Shown: positions 3,592-63,212 of the stretch, piece by piece
Numbering within the stretch: position 1 is the stretch's first letter
Layout of the letters: every line of letters starts with the position of its first letter
From: Candidatus Kerfeldbacteria bacterium
Lineage (GTDB): Bacteria > Patescibacteriota > Patescibacteriia > UBA10025 > JAHIVO01
NCBI GenBank assembly: GCA_047946875.1
Contig: CP181398.1
Coordinates: 841,041-905,040 of the forward strand
DNA: 64,000 bases
Direction: 5' to 3'
Notes under the pieces: model-generated
Seen by the model: the letters and a program-made list of their open reading frames with translations, nothing else
Told to the model about the DNA's origin: nothing
Databases searched by the model: none
Position numbers and translations under genes: made by a program

Positions 3592-4083
3592 TTAAAGCTT
3601 CATATACACAGACGAGACACCATCCTTTAATGCATAAATTGTAAACTTGCCAACTTTAGTTCCTGGCATACCAGGTGAACCGGCGGGCATATCAGGCAAT
3701 GCAATCCCGTCAATATCAGGTTTTTCAGTTAACATCTTATTGATTGCTTCCATAGGTACATGCCCCTCAACAATATAATCACCATAAATTGAAGTATGAC
3801 AACTCTCCATATCTGCAGGAATATTATATTTGTCTTTAATGGAAGACATATTACTTTCTTTAATTATATCTACCTCATATCCTGCATCTTCTACATAAGA
3901 AGCATGTTTTACACAACAACCACAAGTTGGTGATTTATACATCGTTACCTGATCAGATTCTCCATCACTGCTAATATTTATTTTCGTATTCGTTGATTTT
4001 TGTTCAGATGGTAGTACAAAATACACCCCACCCGCTAACACAATAATGCCTACTATTATAATTATCTTATTTCTTAAAATCAT
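3592..4083 (-). CDS. DUF411 (CopG-like) periplasmic metal-binding protein
   Basis: Signal/TM then YKSPTCGCCVKH, matching the conserved CGCC motif of the DUF411 family found in copper-resistance loci. Confidence 0.6.
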   Translation of the reverse strand: MILRNKIIIIVGIIVLAGGVYFVLPSEQKSTNTKINISSDGESDQVTMYKSPTCGCCVKHASYVEDAGYEVDIIKESNMSSIKDKYNIPADMESCHTSIYGDYIVEGHVPMEAINKMLTEKPDIDGIALPDMPAGSPGMPGTKVGKFTIYALKDGVSSVYMKL

Positions 4084-6495: not shown

Positions 6496-7875
6496 TTATA
6501 TCACTACTTCAATTGTACCCGATACCATACCCATCCAACAACTATACTTATATACCCCCGGTTCATCAGCCGTAAAGATCTTTATACTAGTCTGGCCTGG
6601 AGTTAATGCTATTTCTCCATTGAATAAGCTCCTTGAAATAATCGCATTTGTACATCCACTAGTACCAGTATCTAGTACCTCCCATCGAACAGGAATACCA
6701 GCTCTTACTTTCAAATTTTTGGGCTCATAACCATACACCGATGCTTCAGATTTTAATACCTGCACTCCATCGATAATTTGCGGTAAATCGTCATCAATAA
6801 TTTCTTGATCCGATGCATGAATAGTATCAAATCTAATATCACTTAAACTTGGTGCACCCAAAACATTTAATTGAGCATTAATATTATAAATAGCAAAAAA
6901 TAGTACCAAAATTCCAGCAACTTTAGAAAAATTCGCTGCAAGTTTTGGTTTTTCATAAAACTTAATACTTGAAATACCAATAGCTAATAAAGGCGCTAAA
7001 CTTCCTAAGGCAAAAAATAACATAATCAGACCACCTTGTATTGCGCTACCAGATAATAAAGCCATCCCTTGCGCAGTGATAGTAAATCCACATGGTAAAA
7101 TAAAGGTTAGTGCCCCCATAATCATAGGCATCGTTTTACCGTTAAATTTTGTTTCATCAGAAATTCTATGTGTAATAAAATTTGGCAATCTAATTTGAAA
7201 TCTTTGGAATGATTTTACGCCAAATAACTGGAGTCCAAGAAAAATCATCATAACCGATACACCAAAAATTACCACAGAATAAAATGATATTGATAACTGC
7301 AACTTACTTCCAATAGCTCCTAATATCAATCCAAATACAGAATATGAAACTAGTCGACCAATATTAAATAAAACGTGAGGCTGAGCGCGATGAATAAAAG
7401 TTTCTTTCTCTCCATATAGATCTGACCACTGTTTAGAAACTGATAAAATTATCCCACCAACTAAAGCCGCGCACGTAGATAACCCTGCTAACAAACCAAA
7501 TATGAAAAATGTTGGCAATGAAGAGTTCGCACTAACTGACACCAAGCTAGAAAGACCCGTCTTATTAATCAGTAAAAAACCGACAATTAATAAAATCGCA
7601 ATACCAATAACCATGTATGAATTTTTTGATTTAGATGATTTGGGTACAAACCCCTCCATTTCATAGAAGCTGTAATTTTCTGACTTAAATATTTTATTTA
7701 ACTCTTTTATACTTGGAATTTCCTCATTACCGCTGATTTGCACTTCATCGTTTGATAATGATACTTTAACCTTACTAACCCCGGATAATTTCTTTATTTT
7801 TCTTTCAATTAAAACAGGACATGCTGCACAATGCATACCTTCAATAAAATATTTTGTTTTGATATTATTTTCCAT
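6496..7875 (-). CDS. Fusion protein: N-terminal HMA domain + CcdA/DsbD-like thiol-disulfide membrane domain + C-terminal beta-rich cupredoxin-like domain
   Basis: GMHCAACPVLIE HMA motif. A 6-TM core with the two CcdA-type Cys (LSTCAALVGG and FILPCGFTI). The C-terminal ~120 aa ends in YKYSCWMGM. Confidence 0.55.
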   Translation of the reverse strand: MENNIKTKYFIEGMHCAACPVLIERKIKKLSGVSKVKVSLSNDEVQISGNEEIPSIKELNKIFKSENYSFYEMEGFVPKSSKSKNSYMVIGIAILLIVGFLLINKTGLSSLVSVSANSSLPTFFIFGLLAGLSTCAALVGGIILSVSKQWSDLYGEKETFIHRAQPHVLFNIGRLVSYSVFGLILGAIGSKLQLSISFYSVVIFGVSVMMIFLGLQLFGVKSFQRFQIRLPNFITHRISDETKFNGKTMPMIMGALTFILPCGFTITAQGMALLSGSAIQGGLIMLFFALGSLAPLLAIGISSIKFYEKPKLAANFSKVAGILVLFFAIYNINAQLNVLGAPSLSDIRFDTIHASDQEIIDDDLPQIIDGVQVLKSEASVYGYEPKNLKVRAGIPVRWEVLDTGTSGCTNAIISRSLFNGEIALTPGQTSIKIFTADEPGVYKYSCWMGMVSGTIEVVI

Positions 7876-7932
7876 ACATACTAAAAAATTAATGATAAAT
7901 TAATCACTACTCAAAAATAGTTTATATGGGTG

Positions 7933-8250
7933 TTACTCCTTTAAAAAAATTGTATTAAAAAGAAATAACTGTTGTAATTTAAATTCTTTTTCTTCTAACC
8001 AAATGAATTTATAAGTATATATAATTCCCAAAACAATAAAAATAAAAATACCAAAAATTTGTACTACTATAGGTATTGGTGCTGAATTATGCATATTTAG
8101 CGGGGTCATCTTAAGACAATAACCAATACAATCAGAGTCCATATTATTCATATCACCCATCATTGGATTCATGAATAATGACGGAGACAATGCTACAAAT
8201 CCAGACAATACTATTATACTTAAAGCTAATATTATTAATGATTTATTCAT
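7933..8250 (-). CDS. Small hypothetical membrane protein
   Basis: 105-aa ORF with two hydrophobic helices. Confidence 0.3.
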   Translation of the reverse strand: MNKSLIILALSIIVLSGFVALSPSLFMNPMMGDMNNMDSDCIGYCLKMTPLNMHNSAPIPIVVQIFGIFIFIVLGIIYTYKFIWLEEKEFKLQQLFLFNTIFLKE

Positions 8251-8344
8251 AAATATATAATATATAATAACTGTGAAACAATCAAGTGCTATATCAAAAA
8301 ACCATAAATTTCTAATACTTCATGGTTTTTATAAAATTATATTT

Positions 8345-8554
8345 TTACGGAACTAATTGTTTACCTTCATCGTCATATATTTCTATTGCCTGTGTTGGAC
8401 AAGATTTTGCAGCATCAATTATTGTTTGCTCATCATCACCATCTGGATTCTTTAATATGACAATACCCTCATCATCTAACTCAAACGTATCTGGTGCAAT
8501 CGCTACACAAGTAGCAGCAGAAATACATTTGTCACGTAGAATTTTTACTTTCAT
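8345..8554 (-). CDS. Single-cluster ferredoxin (3Fe-4S/4Fe-4S type)
   Basis: 69 aa with CISAATC...CP Cys spacing, typical of small monocluster ferredoxins. Confidence 0.7.
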   Translation of the reverse strand: MKVKILRDKCISAATCVAIAPDTFELDDEGIVILKNPDGDDEQTIIDAAKSCPTQAIEIYDDEGKQLVP

Positions 8555-8619
8555 AATTTATGTTTTTATTAATCTTAATTAATTAATTTTAACATATTCT
8601 TGTATAAAAATGCAAAACA

Positions 8620-9141
8620 CTATTCTGTTGCAGTATTATTAGCTGTTTCATCGACAAATGTTCTACTGGCTAATTGTTGGTCTATTAACAATAATCCATT
8701 GCCATCATCTCCAACTTTCTTAAGATTTTCTGCAATTTCAGTACTATTTGCCTCTTCTTCTACTTGTTCTTTAATAAACCAATGCAATAATTCTTGAGAA
8801 GCATAATCTTTTTCTTGAGTAGCTAATTCATATAGATCATTTATCATACCAGTAACTTTTTGTTCATGTTCATATGCTTTTTGAAAAACATCATGTGGTG
8901 AAGTAAAATTTATTTCTGGTTTATCAAGTGCTTGTAAATCTGTTTGTCCTCCTCGATCTAATATAAATTGAAATAATTTCAAGGCATGCGTTAGCTCTTC
9001 TTGATATTGAATTTTCAACCAATTAGCCATTCCTTTGAAATTATTTGTTTCACAATAAGCGGACATTGCTAAATATAAGAATGCGGAGTAAAACTCTGCC
9101 GCAACTTGTTTATTTATTGCTTCATTAATTTTTTTATTCAT
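8620..9141 (-). CDS. Ferritin-like iron storage protein
   Basis: Ferritin di-iron ligand pattern (E...ExxH...E). Recognisable ferritin helices (FYSAFLYLAMSAYCE, QYQEELTHALKLF). Confidence 0.7.
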   Translation of the reverse strand: MNKKINEAINKQVAAEFYSAFLYLAMSAYCETNNFKGMANWLKIQYQEELTHALKLFQFILDRGGQTDLQALDKPEINFTSPHDVFQKAYEHEQKVTGMINDLYELATQEKDYASQELLHWFIKEQVEEEANSTEIAENLKKVGDDGNGLLLIDQQLASRTFVDETANNTATE

Positions 9142-9153
9142 CTTCTTTGGATA

Positions 9154-9792
9154 TTAATTATTATATAATTCACTAACCTTATTCCAGTTTACCACGTTCC
9201 AGAAAGCTTTCACATAATCAGGTCGCCTATTCTGATATTTCAAATAATAAGCATGCTCCCAGACATCAAGAGCTAAAATTGGCTTCCTGCCTTCTGATAA
9301 TGGTGTATCTTGATTCGAGGTTTTCTCAACTACTAATTTATCACCATCTTTTGATAGCCAGGCCCAACCAGAACCAAACTGAGTGTTAGCGGAGTCTTCA
9401 AACTCTTTTTGAAATTTCTCAAAACTTCCAAAATCTTTTTCTATCGCAGTAAGTAAGTCACCCTCTGGTTTTCCAGAACCATCTGGTCCCATTACCTCCC
9501 AGAACAAACCATGATTTACGTGACCTCCACCGTTATTCCTAACAGAACTCCTAATATCTTCAGGGACTGAATCCAAATCCATTAATATTTCTTCTGCAGT
9601 TTTATTAAAAAATTCATCATTCCCTTCTAAAGCAGTATTAAACTTTGTAGTATAAGCCGCGTGATGCTTATCATGATGGATTGTCATTGTTTCTTTATCT
9701 ATATATGATTCTAGTGCATCATATGCATAAGGTAATTCTGGTGTAGTAAATTGTGTTTTCATATTATATCTATCAATTATTAAGTTATTCAA
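9154..9792 (-). CDS. sod: Fe/Mn superoxide dismutase
   Basis: [17 protein letters not shown] and [18 protein letters not shown] motifs. The true start may be the internal Met ([12 protein letters not shown]) at 9762. Confidence 0.9.
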
Positions 9793-9825
9793 CTATAAAT
9801 TATTGCTAAAATTAGTGCAAATCGC

Positions 9826-10203
9826 TCATTTCTTTTTTATTTTTAATGCTGCTCTAACAGTTTCCAAAGCTAATAAAGCACATTTTCTCCTAGCTGGGGT
9901 TATAGGTGCTTGCATCTCTTTTAGAAAATCTTTATCAGTATATTTATTCATCTGAGCTAATGATTTACCTTTAATTACTTCAGTCAGTATAGAGCCACCT
10001 GCTCTGGATACGCTACATCCAGCACCATGAAATTTAATATCATCAATTTTTCCAGCTTTACTAAGCTTGATATCCATAGTCATCTCATCTCCACAAAGAG
10101 GATTTTTTTTATCTGCAGTAGCGTTTGCATTTTTAATCTTACCGAAATTACGCGGATTCTTATAATGATCTAATATAATTTCTCGGTACATGTCGAATGT
10201 CAT
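9826..10203 (-). CDS. sufU: SufU/IscU-type Fe-S cluster scaffold
   Basis: YKNPRNFG...CGDEMTMDIKL...HGAGCSVS conserved Cys ligands. Adjacent to sufS. Confidence 0.8.
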   Translation of the reverse strand: MTFDMYREIILDHYKNPRNFGKIKNANATADKKNPLCGDEMTMDIKLSKAGKIDDIKFHGAGCSVSRAGGSILTEVIKGKSLAQMNKYTDKDFLKEMQAPITPARRKCALLALETVRAALKIKKK

Positions 10204-11726: not shown

Positions 11727-12385
11727 AAAGTTATATTACTTGGTAATTTATCAAATATGGGTTGAAAAAAGCCATCTATTATCATTTTCTTGGCTTGTGA
11801 ATTACTTACTCCTCGACTGGTCAAATAGAATAATTGATCTTCATCGATTTTACCAGTAGTTGAGCCATGTGAAGCTTTTACATCATTTGCCTCTATCTCA
11901 AGATTAGGAATAGAAACACCCATACCCTGATCTAATAATAATACATTATCAGTAAAATAGGAATTAGTTCCTTGAGCTTTTTTATCAATCTTAATAAGCC
12001 CAATAAATTTGCCTATACTTTTATTAGTATATACCCCTTTGATTAATATACCCCCCGTTGTATTTTTAGCTTTATGATTCATAGTAATATCAAAACCGTG
12101 TCTATTATCTGCATTACCATAAAAAGCATAATATACATTTGCCTTTGCACCATTACCAATTAATTCAACTAATACTTTTGTATCCATCTGCTTAACATTA
12201 TGGATATAATTAATGATAGTAAAGGTTGCTTTTGAATCTACTTTTACTTTAATATTGGCTGGATTATTTTTTAAAATTAATAAAGATTCTGCTTCTTTTC
12301 TGACAATAATATTAAAATCCTTAAATTCTTTATTATCTTTTATTAAATTATATATTTCATTTTTTGAAATAACCATTCGTTTCAT
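11723..12385 (-). CDS. sufD: SufD-like Fe-S assembly protein (short form)
   Basis: C-terminal SufB/SufD beta-helix signature GKIDEDQLFYLTSRGVSNSQAKKMIIDGF. Confidence 0.7.
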   Translation of the reverse strand: MKRMVISKNEIYNLIKDNKEFKDFNIIVRKEAESLLILKNNPANIKVKVDSKATFTIINYIHNVKQMDTKVLVELIGNGAKANVYYAFYGNADNRHGFDITMNHKAKNTTGGILIKGVYTNKSIGKFIGLIKIDKKAQGTNSYFTDNVLLLDQGMGVSIPNLEIEANDVKASHGSTTGKIDEDQLFYLTSRGVSNSQAKKMIIDGFFQPIFDKLPSNITL

Positions 12386-15269: not shown

Positions 15270-15818
15270 ATGGTAATAAAAAAACCAACTGTTTTAACAG
15301 TCTGCTACCCAATAGTTAATAATAGAATTTTGCTTGGAAAAAAGAAAAGAAACATTAAAGCAAGACATTATGTCTATGGGGTTGGATTATTTAATGGTTT
15401 TGGTGGTCATCAAGAATCAGATGAAACAATCATTCAAACTGCAAAACGAGAACTCGAAGATGAGTCTGGCTTAATAGCTACCGAACTAACCAAGGTCGGA
15501 GTCGTACTAATTGTCTACAAAGATAGTGATAAAATGATTGAGTTACATTTTTTTACAACAAAAACTTTTAAAGGTGTGGTAAAAGAATCAAATGAGATGC
15601 GTCCTGTCTGGTGTAACATTGATAGATTGCCACTATCTGAAATGTGGCCCAACGACTCATATTATATGGATATGATTATAACAAACCAGAAATTTATTGG
15701 GTACTTCATTCTCAATAATCCTGATGATAAAAAAATCCTATCCTATAATGTAAAACAAATTAAAACTCTACCCGAACATCTAAACCATGTACGATACCTA
15801 CGATCTTTGAACCTGTAA
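15270..15818 (+). CDS. NUDIX hydrolase (MutT-like)
   Basis: Nudix box GGHQESDETIIQTAKRELEDESGL. Start chosen at MVIKKPT (GAGGG RBS upstream) rather than the ORF-track start at 15153. Confidence 0.65.
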   Translation: MVIKKPTVLTVCYPIVNNRILLGKKKRNIKARHYVYGVGLFNGFGGHQESDETIIQTAKRELEDESGLIATELTKVGVVLIVYKDSDKMIELHFFTTKTFKGVVKESNEMRPVWCNIDRLPLSEMWPNDSYYMDMIITNQKFIGYFILNNPDDKKILSYNVKQIKTLPEHLNHVRYLRSLNL

Positions 15819-15883: not shown

Positions 15884-16813
15884 CTATTGATTAAAGATGG
15901 ATACAACTTTAATAACTCTTGATTTTATTTCTTCTGGAGAAGGATTCATCTCGGCAGTTGTAAAATTACAACCAACTTGATCAATTCGCTCAAATATCTG
16001 CAGATAAAGACTGAAAAGAACTTCTAAACTAAGCAGATACCTAGGTTGCATTTCACTACCTACCCTATCTAACATCTGTCTAGATCCTATTCTGTAACCA
16101 TCGGCTAATTCCTGATATTTCTTTATCAATAGACGGAAATCATTATTAATTTTTCCATCTTTCGCCATCTTTCTTAGGATTGGTATAGTTAAGCCAAATT
16201 CAGCCAAAAAATCATCAGAAAAATAATTTAGACCATCATTATGATCTTCTTGAAAATCACGGATTATATGAACTAGATATGAGAATCTAGCTAAAGGTCT
16301 AGCCGTCTCCATAATATCAAAAGTTGGCTTAGTATAAATACTACCAGCATCATTAATACCACAAAGATGCATAAAAATTGCGCCTGGTGAGACAGCTGCC
16401 CCTTCCGTATATTTTAGAAAAACTGGGAAAGATTCAAAACCATTATTATCGATATCATATTTCATAGACTCGACTAATTTTTCCCATGGCCATATCGGAA
16501 GGTCAATCTTCTTCAACAAGTCTATTAGTTCTTGTTGATTTTTGTCAAATTGAAACTTGCCTTGGATAGCTAAGATCCACTGGCTTAACTTTGTATCAAT
16601 CAGGTCTCTAAGATGTGGTGGCACTTTGCCTTGATATTTCTCCTTAATATCATCAACAATGTTATCAATAATTCTCATTGATCTATAGCACAAGCGAAAT
16701 GCGTCCTGCCGTTCTTGGCTAAAAAAAATTGCCCCAATACCTAAGATCGGGCTCTTAGAAATAAACTCAAGTGTTAATTTTTCTAACACTTCATCTGAGT
16801 TAAATTGATCCAT
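15884..16813 (-). CDS. Squalene/phytoene synthase family (head-to-head trans-isoprenyl diphosphate synthase)
   Basis: Two Asp-rich regions matching the SQS/PSY signatures: SMRIIDNIVDDIKE (region II) and YLVHIIRDFQEDHNDGLNYFS (region IV). Confidence 0.55.
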   Translation of the reverse strand: MDQFNSDEVLEKLTLEFISKSPILGIGAIFFSQERQDAFRLCYRSMRIIDNIVDDIKEKYQGKVPPHLRDLIDTKLSQWILAIQGKFQFDKNQQELIDLLKKIDLPIWPWEKLVESMKYDIDNNGFESFPVFLKYTEGAAVSPGAIFMHLCGINDAGSIYTKPTFDIMETARPLARFSYLVHIIRDFQEDHNDGLNYFSDDFLAEFGLTIPILRKMAKDGKINNDFRLLIKKYQELADGYRIGSRQMLDRVGSEMQPRYLLSLEVLFSLYLQIFERIDQVGCNFTTAEMNPSPEEIKSRVIKVVSIFNQ

Positions 16814-17175: not shown

Positions 17176-17613
17176 ATGAAAAACAATATAACAAAAATTA
17201 TTGTAGGGACAATTATTTTGGCTATCATAATTATTGGTATGGCATTAATTCAAAACAATGACAATAATACTAATACAAACATTGATAACACTAATACAAC
17301 CGTTACAGAGGAAATTACAATATCTACTACTATAGATAGCGGAGAAACTACTAATACCTATGATAAAAAAATATCTACAGATTCTACTGCCTTAAATGTT
17401 CTGAATCTTATTGCCGATGAAGATGATATTATCTTAGGAACAAGCACTACAGATTTTGGAGTTCTAATAAATTCTATCGATAGTATTGGAGAAGACGCTG
17501 ATGATGGTAAATATTGGTCATTTTACGTTAACGATGAAATGGCTAGTGTTGGAGTAGCTGACTACATAGTTAGTAATAATGATATAATTTTAATGAAATA
17601 CCAAGCTTTCTAA
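17176..17613 (+). CDS. DUF4430-family (transcobalamin-like) membrane-anchored B12-binding protein
   Basis: N-terminal TM anchor. C-terminal YWSFYVNDEMASVGVADYIVSNNDIILMKY matches the DUF4430 signature. Immediately downstream of the cobalamin riboswitch. Confidence 0.6.
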   Translation: MKNNITKIIVGTIILAIIIIGMALIQNNDNNTNTNIDNTNTTVTEEITISTTIDSGETTNTYDKKISTDSTALNVLNLIADEDDIILGTSTTDFGVLINSIDSIGEDADDGKYWSFYVNDEMASVGVADYIVSNNDIILMKYQAF

Positions 17614-21245: not shown

Positions 21246-21995
21246 CTATTCAATAAATAATAATAAAGCCATTATTCCGATACCGAATAAGAAAGAAATC
21301 ATTTGCAGAATTGATTTTTTCAAATTTTCTTCTTTTTTTAATTCAGGTATTAAATCCGCTGTAGCAATATAAATAAAGCCACCGATAGTTAGAGGAATAA
21401 TATATTCTTCTGCATTTGCAAAATGATCACCCATTAATAATACAGCAATAGCTCCCAAGATTGCCAAGGTAGCAGATAAGTAATTAAACAGCAAAGCTTT
21501 GACCTTAGAATATCCAGCATAAATCAAAATCCCAAAGTCTCCAATTTCTTGTGGTATTTCATGTAATAACACAGCGATCGTTGTAGCAATACCTAATGGA
21601 ATACTTACCATGAAACTACCAGCAATAATCATACCATCTATAAAATTATGCAATCCATCTCCAACCAAATTATTTATGGCTAGTGGATGTGGATGGTTTT
21701 CAGTTGTAGGTTCGTGGCAATGTCTCCAATGTAAATATTTTTCTAACATAAAGAACATTACAATCCCAGCTAATATTAAAAAAGGGGTTGTATATTCATA
21801 AGTAGCATTAGCAAAAGCTTCGGGTAATAAATGTATAAATGCTCCGCCCAATAAAGATCCAGCCGCAAAACTGACCAAGAATAATAAAGATTTCTTTAGT
21901 CTTTCCATGTTTGCAGACAACGTAAGAATCCCAATCAAGGATACTAAGCTAACAACGAAAACACTTAATAATGTATAAATCCAAACTTCTGTCAT
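21246..21995 (-). CDS. zupT: ZIP-family divalent metal (zinc) transporter, ZupT-like
   Basis: 8-TM protein with HNFIDG and HEIPQEIGDFGIL ZIP signature motifs. Confidence 0.8.
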   Translation of the reverse strand: MTEVWIYTLLSVFVVSLVSLIGILTLSANMERLKKSLLFLVSFAAGSLLGGAFIHLLPEAFANATYEYTTPFLILAGIVMFFMLEKYLHWRHCHEPTTENHPHPLAINNLVGDGLHNFIDGMIIAGSFMVSIPLGIATTIAVLLHEIPQEIGDFGILIYAGYSKVKALLFNYLSATLAILGAIAVLLMGDHFANAEEYIIPLTIGGFIYIATADLIPELKKEENLKKSILQMISFLFGIGIMALLLFIE

Positions 21996-22197: not shown

Positions 22198-23307
22198 CTA
22201 ATTATTCTTTTTTATTTTAATATATTTAGATGCTAAAAACGTTGCCAATGGTATTGATAATACTAATCCAATGCTACCGGTTATCATCCTAACTATTTCA
22301 GTAGCAACCATCTCATTATTTATTACTTGGCTAAAAGTCAAAAATGGCGGCTGATTAATACTAAACAATATCAATAGAGGAAGAGCTGCTCCAGCATAAG
22401 CTAAAAATAATGTATTAACCATGGCACTCATATGAGTAATACCAATTTTCATTGATTTCTTATAAATATTCCTTGTAGATAATTCTGGATCTGTTTTTTT
22501 AAACTCTCTCACTAAACTAACTTGAGCAATAATAACATCATCCAAAACACCAAGCGAACCAATAATAATACCGGCCAATAATAATCCCTGCATATTAATC
22601 TCTACTCCAGATAAACTGGTAATAAATGCAGCCGCTTCATCATAACCAGTCAGATGAGTTAACGAAGTAACCCAGACTGACAGCAAACCAGTAAATATTA
22701 AAGCTATTAAAATAGAAATGACTGAAATAGTAGAAGTTTGATTGAATCCTTCCGTAATATATATAGCCAAAACTAGAATAAATAATGAACCAACGATACT
22801 AATAATCAATGGATTGCCACCATCTAATATCCTAGGAATAATAAAATACAAAATTATCACGAAAGTTAAGACCAATACAAATAAGGCACGCAAACCTTTT
22901 AATCGTCCAACCAATACTACTACCAAGGCAAAAATAAAAACTATCAAATATATTGATCCTTGGCGAACATAATCAATCACAAAAAATACATCTTTTCCAT
23001 CACTATCCTTGGTATAATCAACTATCACTTTATCACCCACTTCATACTCCACCGCTGATATTATCTCAAACTGAGTTCCATCAAATTCAAACTCTTTGTC
23101 TTCCCAATTACCATCCAGACCAATCAACTTTAACCTTTGCTGAACTATAGTAGATCCTTCTTCACTAGTAACATTTTTCTGGCCAATTACTTCCAACACC
23201 CTAGCCTTAAAAGTTTCATCTGCAGTCACAGGCTCTTCTTGAGCATTAGTAAAGAATGGTACAAATAATACCAAGGTAATAATAATAAATAATAATATTC
23301 GCTTCAT
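22198..23307 (-). CDS. YibE/F-family membrane protein
   Basis: Signal peptide, ~120-aa extracytoplasmic domain, then a polytopic membrane domain. Layout resembles YibE/F. Confidence 0.4.
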   Translation of the reverse strand: MKRILLFIIITLVLFVPFFTNAQEEPVTADETFKARVLEVIGQKNVTSEEGSTIVQQRLKLIGLDGNWEDKEFEFDGTQFEIISAVEYEVGDKVIVDYTKDSDGKDVFFVIDYVRQGSIYLIVFIFALVVVLVGRLKGLRALFVLVLTFVIILYFIIPRILDGGNPLIISIVGSLFILVLAIYITEGFNQTSTISVISILIALIFTGLLSVWVTSLTHLTGYDEAAAFITSLSGVEINMQGLLLAGIIIGSLGVLDDVIIAQVSLVREFKKTDPELSTRNIYKKSMKIGITHMSAMVNTLFLAYAGAALPLLILFSINQPPFLTFSQVINNEMVATEIVRMITGSIGLVLSIPLATFLASKYIKIKKNN

Positions 23308-23403
23308 ATAATAAGTAGTAAATTATAATAAAATAATAGCAGGTTTACCATAATAATCAAATAAATACTTGCCCATAAATATAAAGCATGTTAATTTGAT
23401 AAT

Positions 23404-24273
23404 ATGCAAAACGCGCATTTTACCCCACCACAACTAGCCCCTCTTTTTGGAGTTAACGTCTCCACTATAAAGAGGTGGGCAGAAAAAGGATATTTACCCA
23501 CTCATACCACTCCGGGTGGTCATAGACGTATAAGTAAAGATCAATTATCAGAATTCATTACTAAGTACCCTAAACATGCAAAGAATTCATACGTGCTTAA
23601 AAGATTGTTGAAAAAAGATTACTGTCCTGATAATAAATGCTGGAAACAATATTACCAATATCTAAAACATAATGATAATACCAAGGCTATCCAATTACTT
23701 GAAAAACAATTCTTAAGTGGTGCTTCTATTATCAATATTTTAAAAACAATAATCACTCCCACCCTAAGGCACTTAGGACAAGAGTGGACCAAAAATAATA
23801 TTACTGTATTTGATGAGCATCGAATAAGTTTTAATATGCGAGTTCATCTGATGAGATTAGATCAATTGATTCCTGACAAAACTACAAATAAATCTCTAAA
23901 TACTATTCTTGCTTGTGCTCCAGGAGAATATCATGAACTGCCTCTCCAATTAGTAGCTCTAATCTTTAAACTTAATGGATGGTATACTCATATTTTAGGA
24001 GTTAATATTAAAATTGTGGACCTACTCAAAACCGCAAAGAAAATAAAACCAGAAGTTATAGTCATAAGCAAAACTTATACCAAAAAAACATCAGCTGCCT
24101 ATTTTAATAAGCTTGGTAGTTTTATGGATGAAAATAACATCTGCATAGCTATGGGCGGAGGTGCCTGGGAAAAAGAAACTAACAGTAAATTTGTACGTAA
24201 TCGAAAATGCGCTAAATATTTTCCTGCCTTAAAACTTTTTAGCGATTTCCTTGCTGATTATAAACGAAAATAA
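23404..24273 (+). CDS. CarH/LitR-like regulator: MerR-type HTH fused to a B12-binding domain
   Basis: N-terminal MerR HTH (PQLAPLFGVNVSTIKRWAEKGYLPTHTTPGGHRRISKDQL). Helix bundle IITPTLRHLGQEWTKNNITVFDEHRISFNMR typical of B12-binding-2 domains. Rossmann B12 motif CAPGEYHELPLQLVALIFKLNGW (ExHExG variant, as in CarH). Confidence 0.6.
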   Translation: MQNAHFTPPQLAPLFGVNVSTIKRWAEKGYLPTHTTPGGHRRISKDQLSEFITKYPKHAKNSYVLKRLLKKDYCPDNKCWKQYYQYLKHNDNTKAIQLLEKQFLSGASIINILKTIITPTLRHLGQEWTKNNITVFDEHRISFNMRVHLMRLDQLIPDKTTNKSLNTILACAPGEYHELPLQLVALIFKLNGWYTHILGVNIKIVDLLKTAKKIKPEVIVISKTYTKKTSAAYFNKLGSFMDENNICIAMGGGAWEKETNSKFVRNRKCAKYFPALKLFSDFLADYKRK

Positions 24274-24329: not shown

Positions 24330-24692
24330 TTAGATTTTCTTCCCATCCTGAAGTTCGTTGTCAGTACCGACATTTTGACGGGAGTGTCCATCATCCTCTT
24401 CCACTACATGGTACACCTTCATACCGACTTTGAATTGCCCTCCGATCGACGAACCAATTTTTATCCCACACTGATCACCTACTTTCACCTCGGTTACCTG
24501 TTGGTGATCGATCTCGATTGAGTCAGTGATAATAGTTGAGTCGTTCTCACCAGAGTCATCCAGCTTGAAGCAAAGCTTGGCTCCTTTTTCGAAGCCGATG
24601 CCTGTTACTTTAACACCAACACATTGAAGGTCGTAATACAACGCATCAACAGTGCCGATAAGTGTCATGTTATCACTGGACGATTTGTTCAT
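24330..24692 (-). CDS. Small beta-barrel protein resembling translation-factor domain 2 (EF-Tu D2-like), in a GC-elevated patch
   Basis: LIGTVDALYYDLQCVGVKVTG...VKVGDQCGIKIGSSIGGQFKVGMKV resembles the EF-Tu/IF2 domain-2 barrel. Local GC is about 45% against the ~30% background. Confidence 0.35.
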   Translation of the reverse strand: MNKSSSDNMTLIGTVDALYYDLQCVGVKVTGIGFEKGAKLCFKLDDSGENDSTIITDSIEIDHQQVTEVKVGDQCGIKIGSSIGGQFKVGMKVYHVVEEDDGHSRQNVGTDNELQDGKKI

Positions 24693-31093: not shown

Positions 31094-31834
31094 TTAATTA
31101 TTTATTAACTTTACTAAAAACATAAGAACTATACCTAATATAAATATTCCGAAAGAACTCATGGATCTTTTTAAATTAGGCTCTTTTCTTATTTCTGGCA
31201 TCAGATCAGAAGCCGCTATATATATAAATCCTCCGGCCGCAAAAGGCAAAAGATAAGGAATAATACTACTAAGAAAGAAAGATATAAAATAACCAACTAC
31301 TCCTCCCAGAACAACGGTTAAAGCAACTAAATAATTGATAATTAATGCTTTTTTCTTTTTAAATCCAGCATGTATTAACACTCCAAAATCTCCAATCTCT
31401 TGAGGAACTTCATGTAAAGCTATAGCCAAAGTAGTTGCTATTCCTAATTTTACATCAATCAAAAAAGCGCTTGCTATAACCAGCCCATCAATAAAATTAT
31501 GGACTGCATCACCAAATAAATTCATATACCCAAAAGTATGAATTTTACAATTTTCTTTATGACAATGACGCCAAAATAATAATTTTTCCATCAAAAAAAA
31601 GAAAAGAAAAGCAACTAATACTATTAAAAACATTTTTTCAGGATCAATCTTTTTTGATGCTTCTGGCAATAAATGGATAAAAGCTCCACCCATCAAAGCG
31701 CCGGCCGAAAGTGATACTAAGAATATTGTAATTTTAGATAGAAATTCTTTTTTAAAATATAAAAATAATACAGCAAACCAGACTGATAAACTAATTAGAA
31801 AGGTAGCTATTAAAATATTTATTAAAACACTCAT
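31094..31834 (-). CDS. ZIP-family metal transporter (second ZupT-like paralog)
   Basis: HNFIDGL and HEVPQEIGDFGVL motifs. 8 TM. Confidence 0.8.
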   Translation of the reverse strand: MSVLINILIATFLISLSVWFAVLFLYFKKEFLSKITIFLVSLSAGALMGGAFIHLLPEASKKIDPEKMFLIVLVAFLFFFLMEKLLFWRHCHKENCKIHTFGYMNLFGDAVHNFIDGLVIASAFLIDVKLGIATTLAIALHEVPQEIGDFGVLIHAGFKKKKALIINYLVALTVVLGGVVGYFISFFLSSIIPYLLPFAAGGFIYIAASDLMPEIRKEPNLKRSMSSFGIFILGIVLMFLVKLINN

Positions 31835-33246: not shown

Positions 33247-36200
33247 ATGACTACTCCAGAAAAAGACAAAGAGGGAAATAATAATAATGAAAGTGACACT
33301 CCAGCCACACCTGAACTTACCGAAACAGAAAAGAAGCTAGTAGATGCTCAAGCAGAGCTAAGTTTTGATGATGTAGAATCAACAACACCAGATGAAATTG
33401 CTGATAAGACTAAAGAAAAAGCAGCAGGTGATGTCGACAAAATTAAGAGTGATTTTACCGACGCCGGAATAAATATAACAGATGTTCCAGAAGCTGAAGC
33501 AGTCATTGAAAGTGCTACAGATGCAGAGACAACTCTGGGAAAAAAAGTAGATAAAATACAGAACAATACAGCTACACCCGAAACAGAAAAAACATACACA
33601 CCCAGAGAAATAGAAAACTTGGAAAATGGTAGCGATACAGCAGTAACTGGAGAACACCTAACCATAAATACAGCTAAAGACTCCTCTATTACCGTAGAAG
33701 ATGATGCCAAACTAACAATTAATGAAGGGAGAGATAATAAAATTACAACACATGGTAGTGGTACTGCTAATATAAAATCAGGATTGGATAACGAAGTAAT
33801 TGTCGCAGAACCAAAAGATGAGAAAGAAGAAGAACCTAAATATTCAGTTGGACAAGAAGTGAGTTTTAGAAATGAATCATTTGATAGATATGAACCAGGA
33901 ACAATCAAATCAGTCCGTATAGATGACACAGGGAAGAAAAAATATACAATACACAATCCAGAAAATGGAAGAGTATTCCCAACAGAATTAAATGAGGAAG
34001 ATTTTGAAACACCTAAAGAAGAAGAAATACAGGATAATACAACTACACCCGAAACCGAAGAAACTCCAGAAGGCGAAATGCCGGTAGAAATCAGAGAAGC
34101 CAAAGAAAAAAGAAAAGAAATATATTCTGCAATCGAAGTGGGTGAAGAATCCATTCAATTACTGGAAAATAGTGATCGTAAATCATGGCTAGCCAAAACT
34201 ATTTCAAAAATAAAGAAAGCAATTAATCCCAAAACTGGTAAATATAATATTAGAGAAAGATTTGACAGCTCTTCATTAACAGGTACCGCAAAAGCTGAAG
34301 AAGGAACAATATCTAAAGAAGAAGGAATTCCTTCAGATGATATGATATCAATCATATTAGAGCGAGCAGAAAAAATTAAAGAAAGTGCCGAATTACCAGC
34401 CAATGAGCTCAAAAAAGATTTAACAAAAAGAGGTCACTATAAAAAATTAGATGCCGCTGATTCAATCAAACAATTGGTAACAGAAAAGATTAAAGAACAA
34501 GAACAAGCATCAATTAGACATTTTAAACAAGACGGAACCCTGGCAGTAGGAATGAAAAAAAACGGAAAAGGATTTACAAAAAATCATAAAGAATCTTTGG
34601 CAGGAAAAATAGTAACTGACATTTCTAATGATGACTACGATATTAATGCAGAACTTAACCAGATGGTTAGTAATCTTGATAATACCGCAGCAATATTGAG
34701 TGACAATAGTGATACATATCATGATGCAAGATATAAAGAAAACCCCAAAATGAGTGATGAAGAATATCAGACAATGCAAGAAGAAAGAATAAACAGAGAA
34801 GCAATAATTGCTGCAGGAGATTATCGTGGGGGTGAAAATGCAAGCGCAACTCTTGATATAGACAGTGCTCGTGAAACTTTGAATGGTCGTCTAGAATTAG
34901 TTATACCAGGAATATCAGATGAAGAAGAAGAATTGGATAAAAAACCAACTCCAGAAAAACCTAAACCAGAAGACGAAGAAGAAAAACCAACTCCAGAAAA
35001 ACCTAAACCAGAAGACGAAGAAGAAATAACTCCTAAATCTGAAGATGATGATGAACCTAAACCAGAAGACGAGAAAGAAGAGGAAATAAACATCAAGGGA
35101 GCAACTGATAAATATGCTGAAATGATTTCTAGAGGTAGTAAATTCTTCAAAGGTAAAAATTACGATAAAGATCTAGATCAAGCAAGAGAAGAATATGAGA
35201 CTTCTTTAATGCATTATTTAGATAAAGAAGTTAAAGAAAAACTAGATGGTATTGATCCTTTTGATCCTGAAAATCCTGAACATCAACAAAAATTTGCGGA
35301 GATAAATGAAGCGGTCATGGACCAAAGAGAAGCGCTTGGAGAAGCTATTAAAGAAATACATGAATCAACTGCTGGCAGAAAGTTCAAAAACTGGTGGAGA
35401 AAAAGTGCTAAACTTAGAATGGTAGCTGGTCTTACTTTGACAGGTGGAGCTATTGTAGCCGGTGCAACTGGTGCTGGTTTACCAATCACTGCAGCTCTTC
35501 TAGCTGGTAGAGTCGCTCTGTCAGGCGTAGGCACTACCCTAGCAGTTGAGGGTGGCTATGAATACGCAAGAACCAAATATGGTAAAACTAAAGAACTTAC
35601 GAGTAAGGAAGTAGATAAAATGAGTTTATCTGAGCTTGAGGATGCTTATGCGGCTCATACCATTAACTCATCACTCAAAGGTTTAGACAGAGGGCAAGAA
35701 GCCAGTTTCTCTGGAGGAGTTAATACTGAAAAAACATTTATTAAACCTGATGACATGTCTGACGCTAATTGGGACATATTATCAGAAAAAGATAAAAAGA
35801 AAATAGAAGGCATCGAAAAAGAATATATTAAACCAAAGATACTTCTGGACGCTGATTGGGATAAGTTATCAGAAAATAATAAGATGTTGAACCCACTTAT
35901 ATCAAGAAATAGGATTATTAAAGAAAGAAAGGATATAAAAATGATCACTGACAGACTTATGGTGCTTAAGGCAGAACAGTTTAAGGCTGATCTAGATGTC
36001 AAAAAAGAGACAGGTGAATCAGACAGTGATATTGCATATGATGTTATCATGAACAGTATGGATACTTCTGAAAAGGATGCTGACAAAAAACTTGAAGGTA
36101 GAAATGCTGCAATATTAAAAAGTAATAAAAAGAAATGGACTATCGCAGTAGCTTCAGGATTAATCATGGCAAGTGTAATCGGGGTGAGAGGATTTAACAA

Positions 36201-37830
36201 CTTACCGGAAACACCAAAACCAACCACCGAAGATGTACCAGAAGCAACTCCTATACCAGAAGAGACTCCTATAGTTGAAGATGTACCAGAAGCAACTCCT
36301 ATACCAGAAGAGACTCCTATAGTTGAAGATGTACCAGAAGCTTTTGATGGTGCTGTAACTATTGAAAAGGGTGATAACTTATGGAACATAATTAAAGATC
36401 AAGTCAAAACCCAAATGGGTGAAGAAAAATGGGATGCTCTTGGCGAAGGACAACAAACTCATTTAATTGATCAATTCAAAGACACTGTAGCTGATAATCC
36501 TGGGGCGTTTGGACTAGAAAACCCAGATAATCTAGAAATTGGTCAGCAAATTGATCTATCCTCTCTTTATGAAAAAGGTAGCGAACTTGGTACAGCTCTT
36601 GAATCGTCAGCAACCCTTACAGAAAGTCAGTTAGAAAATATAACCGCCAATAATGATACATTGCAAGATTGGGTAACAGACAATCCAGGTAAAAGATTAA
36701 CAAGTGAATTGGTTAATGAAATTTTAAGTGATGATACAGTTGACTCCGACATAGGAGCTGCTTCTGAAGCAGTAGATGGTGCAGCTGCTACAGCTGAAAC
36801 TGCTACTGAAACTTCTGCAGAAGGTGCAGCTAAAAATATAACTAATAGTACCTCAACTACCGAGACAATGACAGATGTTGCTGATACTTCAGAAGCTTCT
36901 GAAGTTGCAGATGGTGGGGATGAGACTGTTACAGAAACAGCACCTGAAGCTGTAGAACAGGCAAAAGAGTTACTGCCAGTGAATGAAAATTGGAAAGAAT
37001 TGAAAAAACTTAGAGAATCTACAAAATACCTAACTAGTAGAACGTTAGACAGAGTGACTGATATGAAAGTACAAGACTTTGTTAAAGGTGAAATACTGGG
37101 TTCGGATGGAAATCCAGTAGACCTCCAAGATCATTTATCCAAAATGGAGGGCTTCAATAATAATGAAGCGAAAAGTTTTGTAAAAAACATGAAGAGTTTC
37201 ATTGAGCATGTTGGCAAAGAAGTTGGTAATGTTGATAGGAACTGGACTGTAGGTGAATTTAGTCAGAAAACTGGATTAATAGGTCCTGATGGTCCAATCG
37301 CATCCCCTTCAATCGGTAGTGGTCTAGATCGATTCCAAGAAGCAGGTGAACAAGCAACAGAATCATTTAAAGACAAATTAACATCTGCCGACGCCTCATT
37401 AGGTGAAGCTCCGACTGATCAACTAGCCGAATTACAAGCCAGTAACGCTGATACGGTAGCTCAATCACAAAAAGTCTCTGCAAACGTTAACGAAGTGCTT
37501 AATACTAAAATCCCAGTTGAAGCTGATATGAAAGATTATTTATCAATCCAAGAAGCAACAAATAGTATTGATGAAAAAACTATGGAATATCTGACCGACC
37601 ATCTAACATTAGATGATATTATAAAAAACAAAGAAGCCGTATTTAAAGGCGATACCATTAATGTTAAAGAAATACTTTCAAGATTTGAAGGTATGAATGA
37701 TAAGCAGGCAAAAGGGCTAATAAGTGGAGTGAAGGGATTATATAAGCAACTCACCGGGCAAGGTTATCCTATCAACACGAATATGACCTTAGGAGAGTTT
37801 AGTAGCAAGATAGATATAATAGAAAAATAA
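33247..37830 (+). CDS. Giant (1527 aa) acidic repeat-containing surface/membrane protein with LysM-like segment
   Basis: Highly acidic low-complexity protein. Two predicted TM regions (MVAGLTLTGGAIVAGATGAGLPITAALLAGRVALSGVG and WTIAVASGLIMASVIGV). Tandem peptide repeats. LysM-like motif VTIEKGDNLWNIIKDQ...NPDNLEIGQQIDL. Intrinsic terminator at 37846-37874. Confidence 0.7.
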   Translation: MTTPEKDKEGNNNNESDTPATPELTETEKKLVDAQAELSFDDVESTTPDEIADKTKEKAAGDVDKIKSDFTDAGINITDVPEAEAVIESATDAETTLGKKVDKIQNNTATPETEKTYTPREIENLENGSDTAVTGEHLTINTAKDSSITVEDDAKLTINEGRDNKITTHGSGTANIKSGLDNEVIVAEPKDEKEEEPKYSVGQEVSFRNESFDRYEPGTIKSVRIDDTGKKKYTIHNPENGRVFPTELNEEDFETPKEEEIQDNTTTPETEETPEGEMPVEIREAKEKRKEIYSAIEVGEESIQLLENSDRKSWLAKTISKIKKAINPKTGKYNIRERFDSSSLTGTAKAEEGTISKEEGIPSDDMISIILERAEKIKESAELPANELKKDLTKRGHYKKLDAADSIKQLVTEKIKEQEQASIRHFKQDGTLAVGMKKNGKGFTKNHKESLAGKIVTDISNDDYDINAELNQMVSNLDNTAAILSDNSDTYHDARYKENPKMSDEEYQTMQEERINREAIIAAGDYRGGENASATLDIDSARETLNGRLELVIPGISDEEEELDKKPTPEKPKPEDEEEKPTPEKPKPEDEEEITPKSEDDDEPKPEDEKEEEINIKGATDKYAEMISRGSKFFKGKNYDKDLDQAREEYETSLMHYLDKEVKEKLDGIDPFDPENPEHQQKFAEINEAVMDQREALGEAIKEIHESTAGRKFKNWWRKSAKLRMVAGLTLTGGAIVAGATGAGLPITAALLAGRVALSGVGTTLAVEGGYEYARTKYGKTKELTSKEVDKMSLSELEDAYAAHTINSSLKGLDRGQEASFSGGVNTEKTFIKPDDMSDANWDILSEKDKKKIEGIEKEYIKPKILLDADWDKLSENNKMLNPLISRNRIIKERKDIKMITDRLMVLKAEQFKADLDVKKETGESDSDIAYDVIMNSMDTSEKDADKKLEGRNAAILKSNKKKWTIAVASGLIMASVIGVRGFNNLPETPKPTTEDVPEATPIPEETPIVEDVPEATPIPEETPIVEDVPEAFDGAVTIEKGDNLWNIIKDQVKTQMGEEKWDALGEGQQTHLIDQFKDTVADNPGAFGLENPDNLEIGQQIDLSSLYEKGSELGTALESSATLTESQLENITANNDTLQDWVTDNPGKRLTSELVNEILSDDTVDSDIGAASEAVDGAAATAETATETSAEGAAKNITNSTSTTETMTDVADTSEASEVADGGDETVTETAPEAVEQAKELLPVNENWKELKKLRESTKYLTSRTLDRVTDMKVQDFVKGEILGSDGNPVDLQDHLSKMEGFNNNEAKSFVKNMKSFIEHVGKEVGNVDRNWTVGEFSQKTGLIGPDGPIASPSIGSGLDRFQEAGEQATESFKDKLTSADASLGEAPTDQLAELQASNADTVAQSQKVSANVNEVLNTKIPVEADMKDYLSIQEATNSIDEKTMEYLTDHLTLDDIIKNKEAVFKGDTINVKEILSRFEGMNDKQAKGLISGVKGLYKQLTGQGYPINTNMTLGEFSSKIDIIEK
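34942..35025 (+). repeat. Tandem 42-bp coding repeat x2 (KPTPEKPKPEDEEE) plus a degenerate third unit
   Basis: aaaccaactccagaaaaacctaaaccagaagacgaagaagaa repeated perfectly at 34942-34983 and 34984-35025. Confidence 0.8.
36229..36341 (+). repeat. Tandem 48-bp coding repeat x2.3 (EDVPEATPIPEETPIV)
   Basis: gaagatgtaccagaagcaactcctataccagaagagactcctatagtt at 36229-36276 and 36277-36324, with a partial third copy. Confidence 0.8.
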
Positions 37831-62990: not shown

Positions 62991-63212
62991 ATGGAAAACA
63001 CATTAAATATTATCCAAATAGTACTAGCCGTAGCCTTAATTGTAGTCATTTTATTACAAAATAAAGGTACTGGTCTAGGATCTATCATGGGTGGCGAAGG
63101 CAATGTTTATCGTACAAAACGTGGTTTTGAAAAAACTTTGTTCTATTCTACGATCGCCCTTAGTCTTGCTTTTTTCGGAATCGCTATAGCAAATATTCTG
63201 ATTCGCCAGTAA
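62991..63212 (+). CDS. secG: Preprotein translocase subunit SecG
   Basis: 73 aa, two TM helices, LLQNKGTGLGSIMGG signature. Confidence 0.7.
   Translation: MENTLNIIQIVLAVALIVVILLQNKGTGLGSIMGGEGNVYRTKRGFEKTLFYSTIALSLAFFGIAIANILIRQ

Follow-up and report, generated by a model that had tools for sequence, protein, structure and literature searches.

A CarH-like regulator with a B12-binding domain in Patescibacteria and a conserved element at the start of its gene

A 64-kb stretch of the genome of a Candidatus Kerfeldbacteria bacterium (the whole of which was analysed and is hereafter named the window) contains at positions 23404-24273 a gene for a regulator that is related to the B12 photoreceptors CarH and CtMerR. 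Comparison of this gene with its relatives added three things to what was known of the locus: a clade of B12-photoreceptor regulators that runs through the Candidate Phyla Radiation (CPR, Patescibacteria), a candidate operator placed in the first codons of the gene, and a back-to-back promoter architecture built on the same DNA. The protein is probably an adenosylcobalamin (AdoCbl)-dependent factor of the CarH type, which would act as an autoregulated repressor of oxidative-stress and surface genes and would respond to light and also to O2. The superoxide dismutase gene sod and the genes for fasciclin-domain and DUF378 proteins, and occasionally those for a heliorhodopsin or a CrtI-family protein, are likely to be its outputs.

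Domains, signature residues and distribution of the regulator

An earlier note on this DNA, made from the letters alone, had described the protein as a fusion of a MerR-type helix-turn-helix (HTH) domain with a B12-binding-2 helix bundle and a Rossmann B12-binding domain. This was confirmed with Pfam, since all the matches exceeded the gathering score: HTH_17 (residues 6-54, E 2.9e-9), MerR (residues 10-42), B12-binding_2 (residues 82-142) and B12-binding (residues 167-231). The HTH scored 37.5 bits with HTH_17 and 29.4 bits with MerR PF00376 (cut-off 28.2), and it aligned with the DNA-binding domains of TtCarH and CtMerR. It was also matched by the NCBIfam family HTH_BldC NF033787 (E 1.4e-11, 44.1 bits vs a family cut-off of 77) and by the BldC structures 6ama and 6amk (E 3e-5). 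Judged by these matches, the HTH of the regulator is nearer to the BldC/excisionase type than to the canonical MerR type.

When the regulator was compared with all the PDB sequences, the best match was CtMerR (8jbs, E 4.9e-23, with both the HTH and the B12 domain aligned), followed by TtCarH (E 2e-11). The entries 8JBS and 8JBT correspond to CtMerR, the MerR-family B12 photoreceptor of Chloracidobacterium thermophilum (PMC11796333). An AlphaFold2 model of the regulator, obtained with 25 family members, had a mean pLDDT of 85.8. Comparison of this model with the PDB using Foldseek yielded only B12 photoreceptors among the top 50 matches, including full-length TtCarH (E ~3e-15) and photocobilins, and the TM value was 0.80 to the cobalamin-binding domains (CBDs) of both CtMerR and TtCarH.

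A signature of light-responsive CBDs, formed by the elements GxxW, EH, GxxH and GxxxP, has been validated experimentally (SignatureFinder; PMC11796333), and in both TtCarH and CtMerR the residues of GxxW and EH form a cap over the adenosyl group (PMC11796333). Three of these four elements are present in the regulator, namely G125xxW128, E138-H139 and G174xxH177. Residues 128-139 make up the motif Wx9EH (W128, E138 and H139, which align to W131, E141 and H142 of TtCarH), and this motif is more diagnostic than the GEYHELP stretch (E175-Y-H177-E-L-P), whose H177 aligns to H177 of TtCarH. GEYHELP, on which the earlier note had relied, is indeed present, but the variant had been misnamed as ExHExG: the motif is ExHExP. 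The reading of the protein as a CarH/LitR-like regulator of the AdoCbl type stood, with the PDB matches, the fold matches, the three signature elements and the conservation within the family all agreeing with it.

The regulator is 100% identical to a protein of a Candidatus Kerfeldbacteria metagenome-assembled genome with a 1.31-Mb contig, in keeping with the reduced genome that had been supposed. Its relatives form ~66 clusters in Patescibacteria (26-68% identity) and a second tier, with ~23-35% identity, in Marinimicrobia, Calditrichia, KSB1, Bacteroidota and similar groups (hereafter the Fibrobacteres-Chlorobi-Bacteroidetes or FCB tier). Among the 66 CPR sequences aligned, W128 was conserved in 59, E138 in 64, H139 in 65, H177 in 60 and P180 in 58. 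The complete Wx9EH motif was kept in 58 of the 66 CPR orthologues and in 38 of 40 FCB relatives, and [E/D]xH[E/D]xP occurs in both tiers. The proline of ExHExP is a hallmark of the clade (58/66 in the alignment, 48 of the 55 motif matches found by regular expression), TtCarH having G and CtMerR A at this position. The HTH is nearly invariant in the CPR clade (NVSTIKRW, T36, G38, H40, R42), and the position equivalent to His132 of TtCarH is occupied by S, A, Q, T or E. As far as these sequences indicate, the clade is widespread in Patescibacteria and extends the CtMerR branch to a new phylum. No literature linking CarH to Patescibacteria or the CPR was found in a search of incomplete coverage that included the SignatureFinder supplement, and the literature on freshwater CPR bacteria and on heliorhodopsins leaves B12 and MerR regulators unmentioned.

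The conserved element and the promoters around it

For the comparison of the DNA around the regulator gene, 80 genome loci and 80 metagenome loci were fetched, their open reading frames (ORFs) were called and the neighbour proteins were clustered. In a start-anchored alignment the promoters of the CPR orthologues share one form: CTTGCGT as -35 region (TTGACA in distant members), 17 nt, TGnTAnnnT, 6 nt and the ATG. This fixed layout of -10 box, 6 nt and ATG, to which the promoter predicted in the window conforms (Table 1), would imply a leaderless mRNA. A ZIP gene of locus L095 has a likewise leaderless layout (3826-3879; TGATATACT-AACGGC-ATG), which suggests that mRNAs of this kind may be frequent in these lineages of the CPR.

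The first codons of the gene carry a 16-nt element, TGCAAAACGTGCATTT, an exact copy of which stands at the start of nearly every CPR orthologue. The same 16-mer was found intact in 11 further independent orthologues, some of them only 30-36% identical in protein, and the element is invariant at synonymous sites in at least 33 orthologues. Codons 2-5 (CAA AAC GTG CAT) showed no synonymous variation in 21-22 of 22 orthologues; other invariant residues of the protein (V17, N18, S20, T21, K23, R24, G38, H40, R41 and R42) are encoded by two to six codons each. In two loci, L103 and L025, the true ORF starts 61 or 25 nt downstream and in another frame, and the element, here non-coding, consists of two perfect 9-mers, AAAACGTGC AAAACGTGC. 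This indicates that the constraint is on the nucleic acid and not on the protein. In both loci the element opens a short upstream ORF (L103 1391-1450, encoding VQNVHFSFNPFILLIYPQK and a stop codon; L025 764-790, encoding VQNVHFIL and a stop codon), which represents either what is left of the MQNVHF N-terminus or an alternative to it.

The element can be read as tandem 9-mers, AAAACRTGC / AAAACGTGC / ATTTnnnnC; with TGCA being palindromic, the inverted-repeat reading ATGCA-N5-TGCAT is possible beside these direct repeats. Its 3' part is AACGTGCATTT.

The complement of the ATGCAA contained in the element is TTGCAT, and a TAnnnT sequence lies exactly 17 nt off on the minus strand in 29 of 35 loci. 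The resulting divergent promoter, TTGCAY-17-TAnnnT, was present in all 20 of the 20 loci in which the divergent gene is a fasciclin or DUF378 gene, and the six loci without it are the window and its close relatives, where the divergent gene has been replaced. Hence, the element appears from these alignments to double as the -35 box, plus ~10 bp upstream, of a back-to-back divergent promoter in most CPR genomes. In the window the divergent neighbour of the regulator is a gene for a YibE/F-family membrane protein (22198-23307, minus strand, 222 bits). Here the divergent promoter is degenerate (CTTTAT) and a separate predicted promoter, TTGATT-16-TATTAT (23360-23333), lies nearer to the YibE/F gene. 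Because of this decay, the credible targets of the regulator in this genome are its own gene and sod.

Each CPR locus had a single copy of the exact 13-mer core of the element, except L010, which had one more. Copies or near-copies were present upstream of sod in all three of the independent genomes with sod in the fetched DNA, always in the same place, antisense to the gene and overlapping its promoter TTGCAY-17-TATAGT/TATATT. The geometry of this promoter in the window is shared by L009 (TTGCAT-17-TATAGT) and L010 (TTGCAC-17-TATATT). In a background of 256 intergenic regions the typical best match had 6-7 mismatches and ~1.6% of the regions reached 3 or fewer. With a degenerate form of the element core, matches in the window were obtained at 9816 and 23405 only. 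Matches at 15440, 36816, 42156, 55539 and 16433, which appeared at relaxed stringency, are located inside ORFs and were discarded as chance level. Two weak copies with 3 mismatches lie at the edge of chance level, one at 63113-63128 of the window (plus strand), upstream of an SBP_bac_5 gene, and the other at 17376-17391 of L014 (minus strand), upstream of a gene that encodes 243 aa, has no annotation and adjoins a ZIP gene.

Genomic neighbourhood

In the CPR tier the gene divergent from the regulator encodes a fasciclin-domain protein in 12-14 of the 23 genome loci, and it does so in 6 more loci from metagenomes; a DUF378 gene often follows it. On a 1.18-Mb CPR contig (L005) the divergent gene encodes a heliorhodopsin (8798-9904, minus strand; NCBIfam HeR equivalog, 352 bits) and is preceded by DUF378; two light-related proteins would thus stand side by side in this genome. 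Heliorhodopsin as a general partner was rejected, this arrangement being confined to one genome (L005/L006). In L022 the divergent unit (6998-9732, minus strand) consists of a phytoene desaturase of the CrtI family (TIGR02734, 441 bits vs 238) and a UbiB/ABC1-like kinase. A carotenoid-type desaturase is unexpected in Patescibacteria.

The FCB tier presents the classical carotenoid setting of CarH/LitR. Within 10 kb of the regulator CrtI was encoded in 33 of 58 loci, lycopene cyclase in 31, CrtB in 26 (SQS_PSY 266 bits) and CruF in 17, together with an acyltransferase (21), a glycosyltransferase (19), TonB-dependent receptors and an unannotated photolyase-like cluster (8 loci). A link to carotenoids is found in these relatives and in the CPR genome L022. 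In the 64 kb of the window no crtI, nrdJ, adenosyltransferase or rhodopsin gene was present, and no partner of the crtB type.

In the subclade of the window the regulator lies inside a syntenic metal/oxidative-stress island (Cu-ATPase, DsbA/DsbD-like, ferritin, SOD, NifU, Suf, FUR, CorA, DUF1858, ZIP and YibE/F). The corresponding genes of the window form a long minus-strand run (1-32000) with two DsbA-like genes, DUF411, Cu-ATPase, HMA-DsbD-cupredoxin, ferritin, SOD, NifU, Suf, FUR, CorA, DUF1858, YibE/F, a CMD-family gene and the ZIP paralogues 21246-21995 and 31094-31834, and the run is partly syntenic in the related CPR genomes L003/L009, L010, L090 and L095. Convergent with the regulator there is a 120-aa ORF without family match (24330-24692, minus strand), seen in this genome only among the compared loci. 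Further downstream, a 1527-aa ORF without Pfam match (33247-37830, plus strand) lies in the only part of the window (32-38 kb) where the GC skew is positive and the AT skew strong, a local strand switch. In L014, a 1.03-Mb CPR contig, a group I intron (11894-12204, minus strand; RF00028, 83 bits) is located ~1 kb downstream of the regulator.

The cobalamin riboswitch, the DUF4430 gene and the gene of the squalene/phytoene synthase (SQS_PSY) family, which the earlier note had reported close to the regulator, were recovered with Rfam and Pfam at or near the places it had given (Table 1). The phytoene synthase-like (PSY-like) protein keeps both Asp-rich motifs (D50NIVD54 and D186FQED190). Its scores were 29.9 and 16.6 bits with the CrtB models (cut-offs 550 and 500, respectively), 38 bits with HpnD (cut-off 279) and 33 bits with HpnC (cut-off 250), and no PDB relative was obtained with phmmer. 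Its closest relatives (45-50% identity) are in Promethearchaeota (Asgard), Bathyarchaeota, Zixibacteria and Chloroflexota, and in two Zixibacteria loci, whose shared synteny makes them one independent sample, the relative stands alone, without crt genes. On this evidence the protein belongs to a divergent, tight subfamily. Matches to PDB sequences and genomic context were tried as guides to its product and gave no answer. Lateral transfer of the PSY-like gene into the Kerfeldbacteria genome is possible.

Table 1. Location of the regulator gene, the element and its near-copies, the predicted promoters and the neighbouring genes (window coordinates unless a locus is named)
Feature	Position	Strand	Details
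CarH/CtMerR-type regulator gene	23404..24273	+	ATG start, 289 aa; HTH_17/MerR-like winged HTH, four-helix bundle, Rossmann B12-binding domain
DNA-binding domain, aa 6-54	23419..23565	+	BldC/excisionase-like (HTH_17)
Four-helix bundle, aa 79-155	23638..23868	+	holds G125xxW128 and E138-H139 (Wx9EH)
Rossmann B12-binding domain, aa 166-285	23899..24258	+	G174-E175-x-H177 (lower axial His), ExHELP
Regulator promoter (predicted from sequence)	23369..23397	+	-35 TTGCCC (23369-23374), 17-nt spacer, -10 TAATTT (23392-23397), 6 nt (GATAAT), ATG
Candidate operator	23399..23425 (-5 to +22)	+	core TGCAAAACGCGCATTT at 23405-23420; 1 mismatch to the family-invariant 16-mer
Element near-copy TGCAAATCGCTCATTT	9816-9831	+	3 mismatches; nifU-sod intergenic, antisense to sod, overlaps sod -35
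Element near-copy	L010 1071-1086		0 mismatches to 16-mer; upstream of sod
Element near-copy	L009 1228-1243		2 mismatches; upstream of sod
Element near-copy	L095 3847-3862		2 mismatches; between two ZIP genes, promoter of leaderless ZIP gene
sod promoter (predicted)	9792..9820	-	TTGCAC-17-TATAGT; -35 within reverse complement of element
Fe/Mn superoxide dismutase gene (sod)	9154..9762	-	ATG at 9762; candidate regulator target
AdoCbl riboswitch RF01482	16937-17073	+	61 bits vs gathering 50, model 1-149 of 149; 102 nt upstream of DUF4430 ORF
DUF4430 protein, membrane-anchored	17176-17613	+	Pfam E 1e-15
SQS_PSY-family protein	15884-16813	-	PF00494 73.6 bits, E 2.8e-20

The proposed circuit, its alternatives and known systems

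In the circuit that we propose, the AdoCbl-loaded protein would oligomerise in the dark through its B12-binding domains, and its BldC-like HTH domains would then bind the tandem 9-bp repeats head-to-tail. The site covers the predicted transcription start of the leaderless mRNA of the regulator itself (-5 to +22), and its occupation would lead to self-repression. In most CPR genomes the same DNA would be the -35/upstream region of the divergent promoter for fasciclin and/or DUF378, rarely for heliorhodopsin or the UbiB/CrtI pair; in this genome, with its divergent promoter apparently decayed, a second copy of the site lies on the predicted -35 box of sod. Light would cleave the Co-C bond and, by analogy with TtCarH and CtMerR, the oligomer would fall apart, O2 probably contributing, and the targets would be derepressed. 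The light-driven dissociation of TtCarH also needs oxidation of the cobalt by O2, as well as His132 (PMC10442372).

Several observations weigh against this circuit. The fourth element of the light signature, GxxxP, is absent from the regulator, which has G199-V-N-I-K203 (GVNIK) instead; in CtMerR the proline of this element touches the cofactor adenosyl of the neighbouring monomer (PMC11796333), and position 203 is variable across the CPR family (S27/P21/K7). The upper-ligand His, which is His132 in TtCarH and forms the bis-His light state, is also missing, Thr129 being found there, and the H132A variant of TtCarH fails to monomerise (PMC10442372). CtMerR has Arg at this position and yet photoconverts and monomerises (PMC11796333). 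The NCBIfam CarH equivalog NF052513 gives the regulator 67.1 bits vs a cut-off of 400, and because this is so far under the threshold the protein is to be regarded as CarH-like and not as a strict CarH orthologue; its sequence supports membership of the HTH_17-CBD branch, of which CtMerR is the characterised representative. For several orthologues the source was groundwater or a deep mine, and in such places light is ruled out as the signal. With regard to the DNA, the copy of the element in the window has one mismatch to the consensus and the sod copy three, and all the loci had been chosen for carrying the regulator, which places the element in regulator-free genomes outside the sample. The link between regulator and element is one of co-occurrence and position only, and an activator could just as well use an element whose centre is near -41 of the sod promoter and the divergent promoter.

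One important question is whether the protein responds to cobalamin availability instead of light. It would then bind DNA only with scavenged AdoCbl, and expression of its targets would report the supply of B12 or the supply by a host. Orthologues with an intact signature were indeed found in a deep mine (L015, Afr_mines) and apparently in groundwater (sample names with GW1), the genome senses cobalamin by a riboswitch, and to our knowledge CPR bacteria are unlikely to make B12. We consider this explanation unlikely all the same, since no B12 gene is among the candidate targets (sod, ZIP, fasciclin, DUF378, heliorhodopsin and CrtI) and DUF4430, the candidate for B12 uptake, is under the riboswitch and without a copy of the element. 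Furthermore, the conserved residues are those of the photoreceptor adenosyl cap, AdoCbl so bound is photolabile, and relatives of the regulator adjoin carotenoid, photolyase-like and rhodopsin genes. The readings as light sensor and as B12 sensor are compatible, since in the dark the protein would be an AdoCbl sensor by default. The sign of regulation may be questioned as well: the protein might bind the element but activate sod and the divergent promoters in a class II-like manner (centre near -41), repressing only its own promoter. This we regard as more doubtful still. The element does occupy ~-34 to -49 of these promoters, and their -35 boxes (TTGCAY) are imperfect, but nothing in the data favours activation, and all the characterised CarH/LitR proteins that we know of are repressors at their target promoters. 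AdoCbl-bound TtCarH, a tetramer, likewise suppresses transcription by binding to the promoter region (PMC10442372).

Doubt may also fall on the element, which could be something other than the operator of the regulator: pure promoter DNA (-35/UP), the site of another factor, or a signal at the 5' end of the mRNA for leaderless translation or stability. A -35 hexamer, complementary to ATGCAA and 17 nt from the conserved TAnnnT in the 29 of 35 loci mentioned above, accounts for 6 nt and leaves the other 10 invariant nucleotides unexplained. Most departures from the sequence of the element are in the subclade without the divergent promoter, but even there it is nearly intact. A 5-bp hairpin with the AUG in it is conceivable in the RNA; it was rejected as the main explanation, since its stability is low (-2.9 kcal/mol, z -0.58) and does not exceed that of shuffled sequences, its loop is invariant and its pairing is broken in the window copy and in L095. 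The copies at sod and ZIP are antisense to the gene and precede its -10 box, hence the mRNAs of these genes do not contain them, and the near-invariance of the element parallels that of the HTH. Such a role is accordingly given a small chance. By far the least probable explanation is the one offered by the earlier note, a single light/B12 module made up of the regulator, the PSY-like synthase and the riboswitch-controlled DUF4430 protein, in which the PSY-like gene would be controlled as crtB is by CarH. The three do lie within 8 kb, FCB relatives of the CarH family adjoin crtB and crtI, and the orthologue of one CPR genome has a CrtI-family gene as its divergent neighbour. However, the 22 other CPR loci of the first set had neither a PSY-like nor a DUF4430 gene at less than 10 kb from the regulator, both were singletons in the clustering of 87 loci, and neither appeared in 14 further metagenome loci labelled by BLAST, so that the linkage is unique among the 23 CPR loci and a conserved linkage was rejected for the PSY-like gene, DUF4430 and the riboswitch alike. 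In 14 other CPR genomes no cobalamin riboswitch was detected at less than 10 kb from the regulator. The element has no copy between 16814 and 16936 or ahead of the PSY-like gene, the nearest being the mismatched match inside an ORF at 16433, and between the riboswitch/DUF4430 unit and the regulator there are six genes, among them CorA, ZIP, YibE/F and a thymidine-phosphorylase-like gene. Since the linkage is a singleton, no riboswitch accompanies the regulator elsewhere and the PSY-like protein is divergent, far under the CrtB cut-offs and without crt neighbours in Zixibacteria, the PSY-like gene and the riboswitch/DUF4430 unit are best read as neighbours by coincidence, outside the circuit of the regulator. 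What the riboswitch unit does show is import and sensing of cobalamin by the organism, and this is relevant as a possible supply of the cofactor.

Very few sensory or regulatory systems can be recognised in CPR bacteria, and how they respond to light and oxygen has been discussed only through rhodopsins (PMC9166423). A light-responsive, autoregulated repressor of the kind proposed here, with a predictable operator and a small regulon that can be read, would, if true, provide a testable handle on how ultra-small episymbionts sense surface conditions, on their dependence on scavenged cofactors and on the roles of the fasciclin and DUF378 surface proteins. We put forward a broader interpretation with more reserve than the circuit itself, as conceivable but tentative: that host-dependent CPR bacteria, presumably obliged to scavenge B12, use the AdoCbl so obtained as a chromophore and in this way couple light and cofactor supply to surface proteins (fasciclin adhesion domain, DUF378), to a heliorhodopsin or a CrtI-family desaturase (one genome each) and to sod/ZIP. 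The operator would lie within the first five codons of a leaderless gene, freezing codon choice throughout the clade, and would serve at the same time as the -35 of the back-to-back promoter. Going by the literature searched, the CPR would gain its first described transcriptional light-sensing system. Two positions considered important for responding to light, the upper His and the proline of GxxxP, also vary naturally within the family. For annotation, the locus is a lesson that gene proximity alone, here that of the PSY-like gene and the riboswitch, may mislead.

Among the known systems, CtMerR shares with the regulator the flavour of the HTH (TPGGHRR), the order of the three domains, the GxxW, EH and GxxH elements, the lack of the upper His of TtCarH and the fold of the CBD (TM 0.80). 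It differs in sequence (~20-30% identity), in having GPNTP (GxxxP) where the regulator has GVNIK, and in having DLHEIA for ExHELP. Its DNA site and regulon are not described in PMC11796333, and the proposed operator and targets consequently have no counterpart there; the element thus supplies a candidate DNA site for the CtMerR branch. The CarH-like regulators of the FCB tier (Marinimicrobia, Calditrichia, KSB1 and Bacteroidota; 24-31% identity) have the same HTH_17-CBD architecture, Wx9EH and [E/D]xH[E/D]xP. Unlike the regulator, they flank complete carotenoid clusters and lack the MQNVH start, and the 13-mer core of the element was in none of their loci.

TtCarH (5C8D/5C8E/5C8F) resembles the regulator in its full-length fold (E 3e-15), in Wx9EH and in the ExH motif with His as lower ligand. 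The regulator departs from it in the BldC/excisionase-like HTH, in Thr129 for His132 and in candidate repeats of 9 bp, the operator repeat of TtCarH being 11 bp. In a structure study of TtCarH with DNA, the TtCarH operator reportedly covers the -35 box too. The candidate targets in the window, sod and the regulator gene itself, also differ from those of the CarH-LitR family, which are crt genes. BldC of Streptomyces binds 9-bp direct repeats (an AT-rich tetramer, 4 nt and C) head-to-tail as cooperative multimers (PMC5859096). BldC is a stand-alone domain of 68 residues without a sensor. The HTH of the regulator matches it in sequence with a score below the family cut-off, and repeats of the same form may be read in the element as AAAACATGC, AAAACGTGC and ATTTnnnnC, and as AATTAGTGC at the sod copy of the window.

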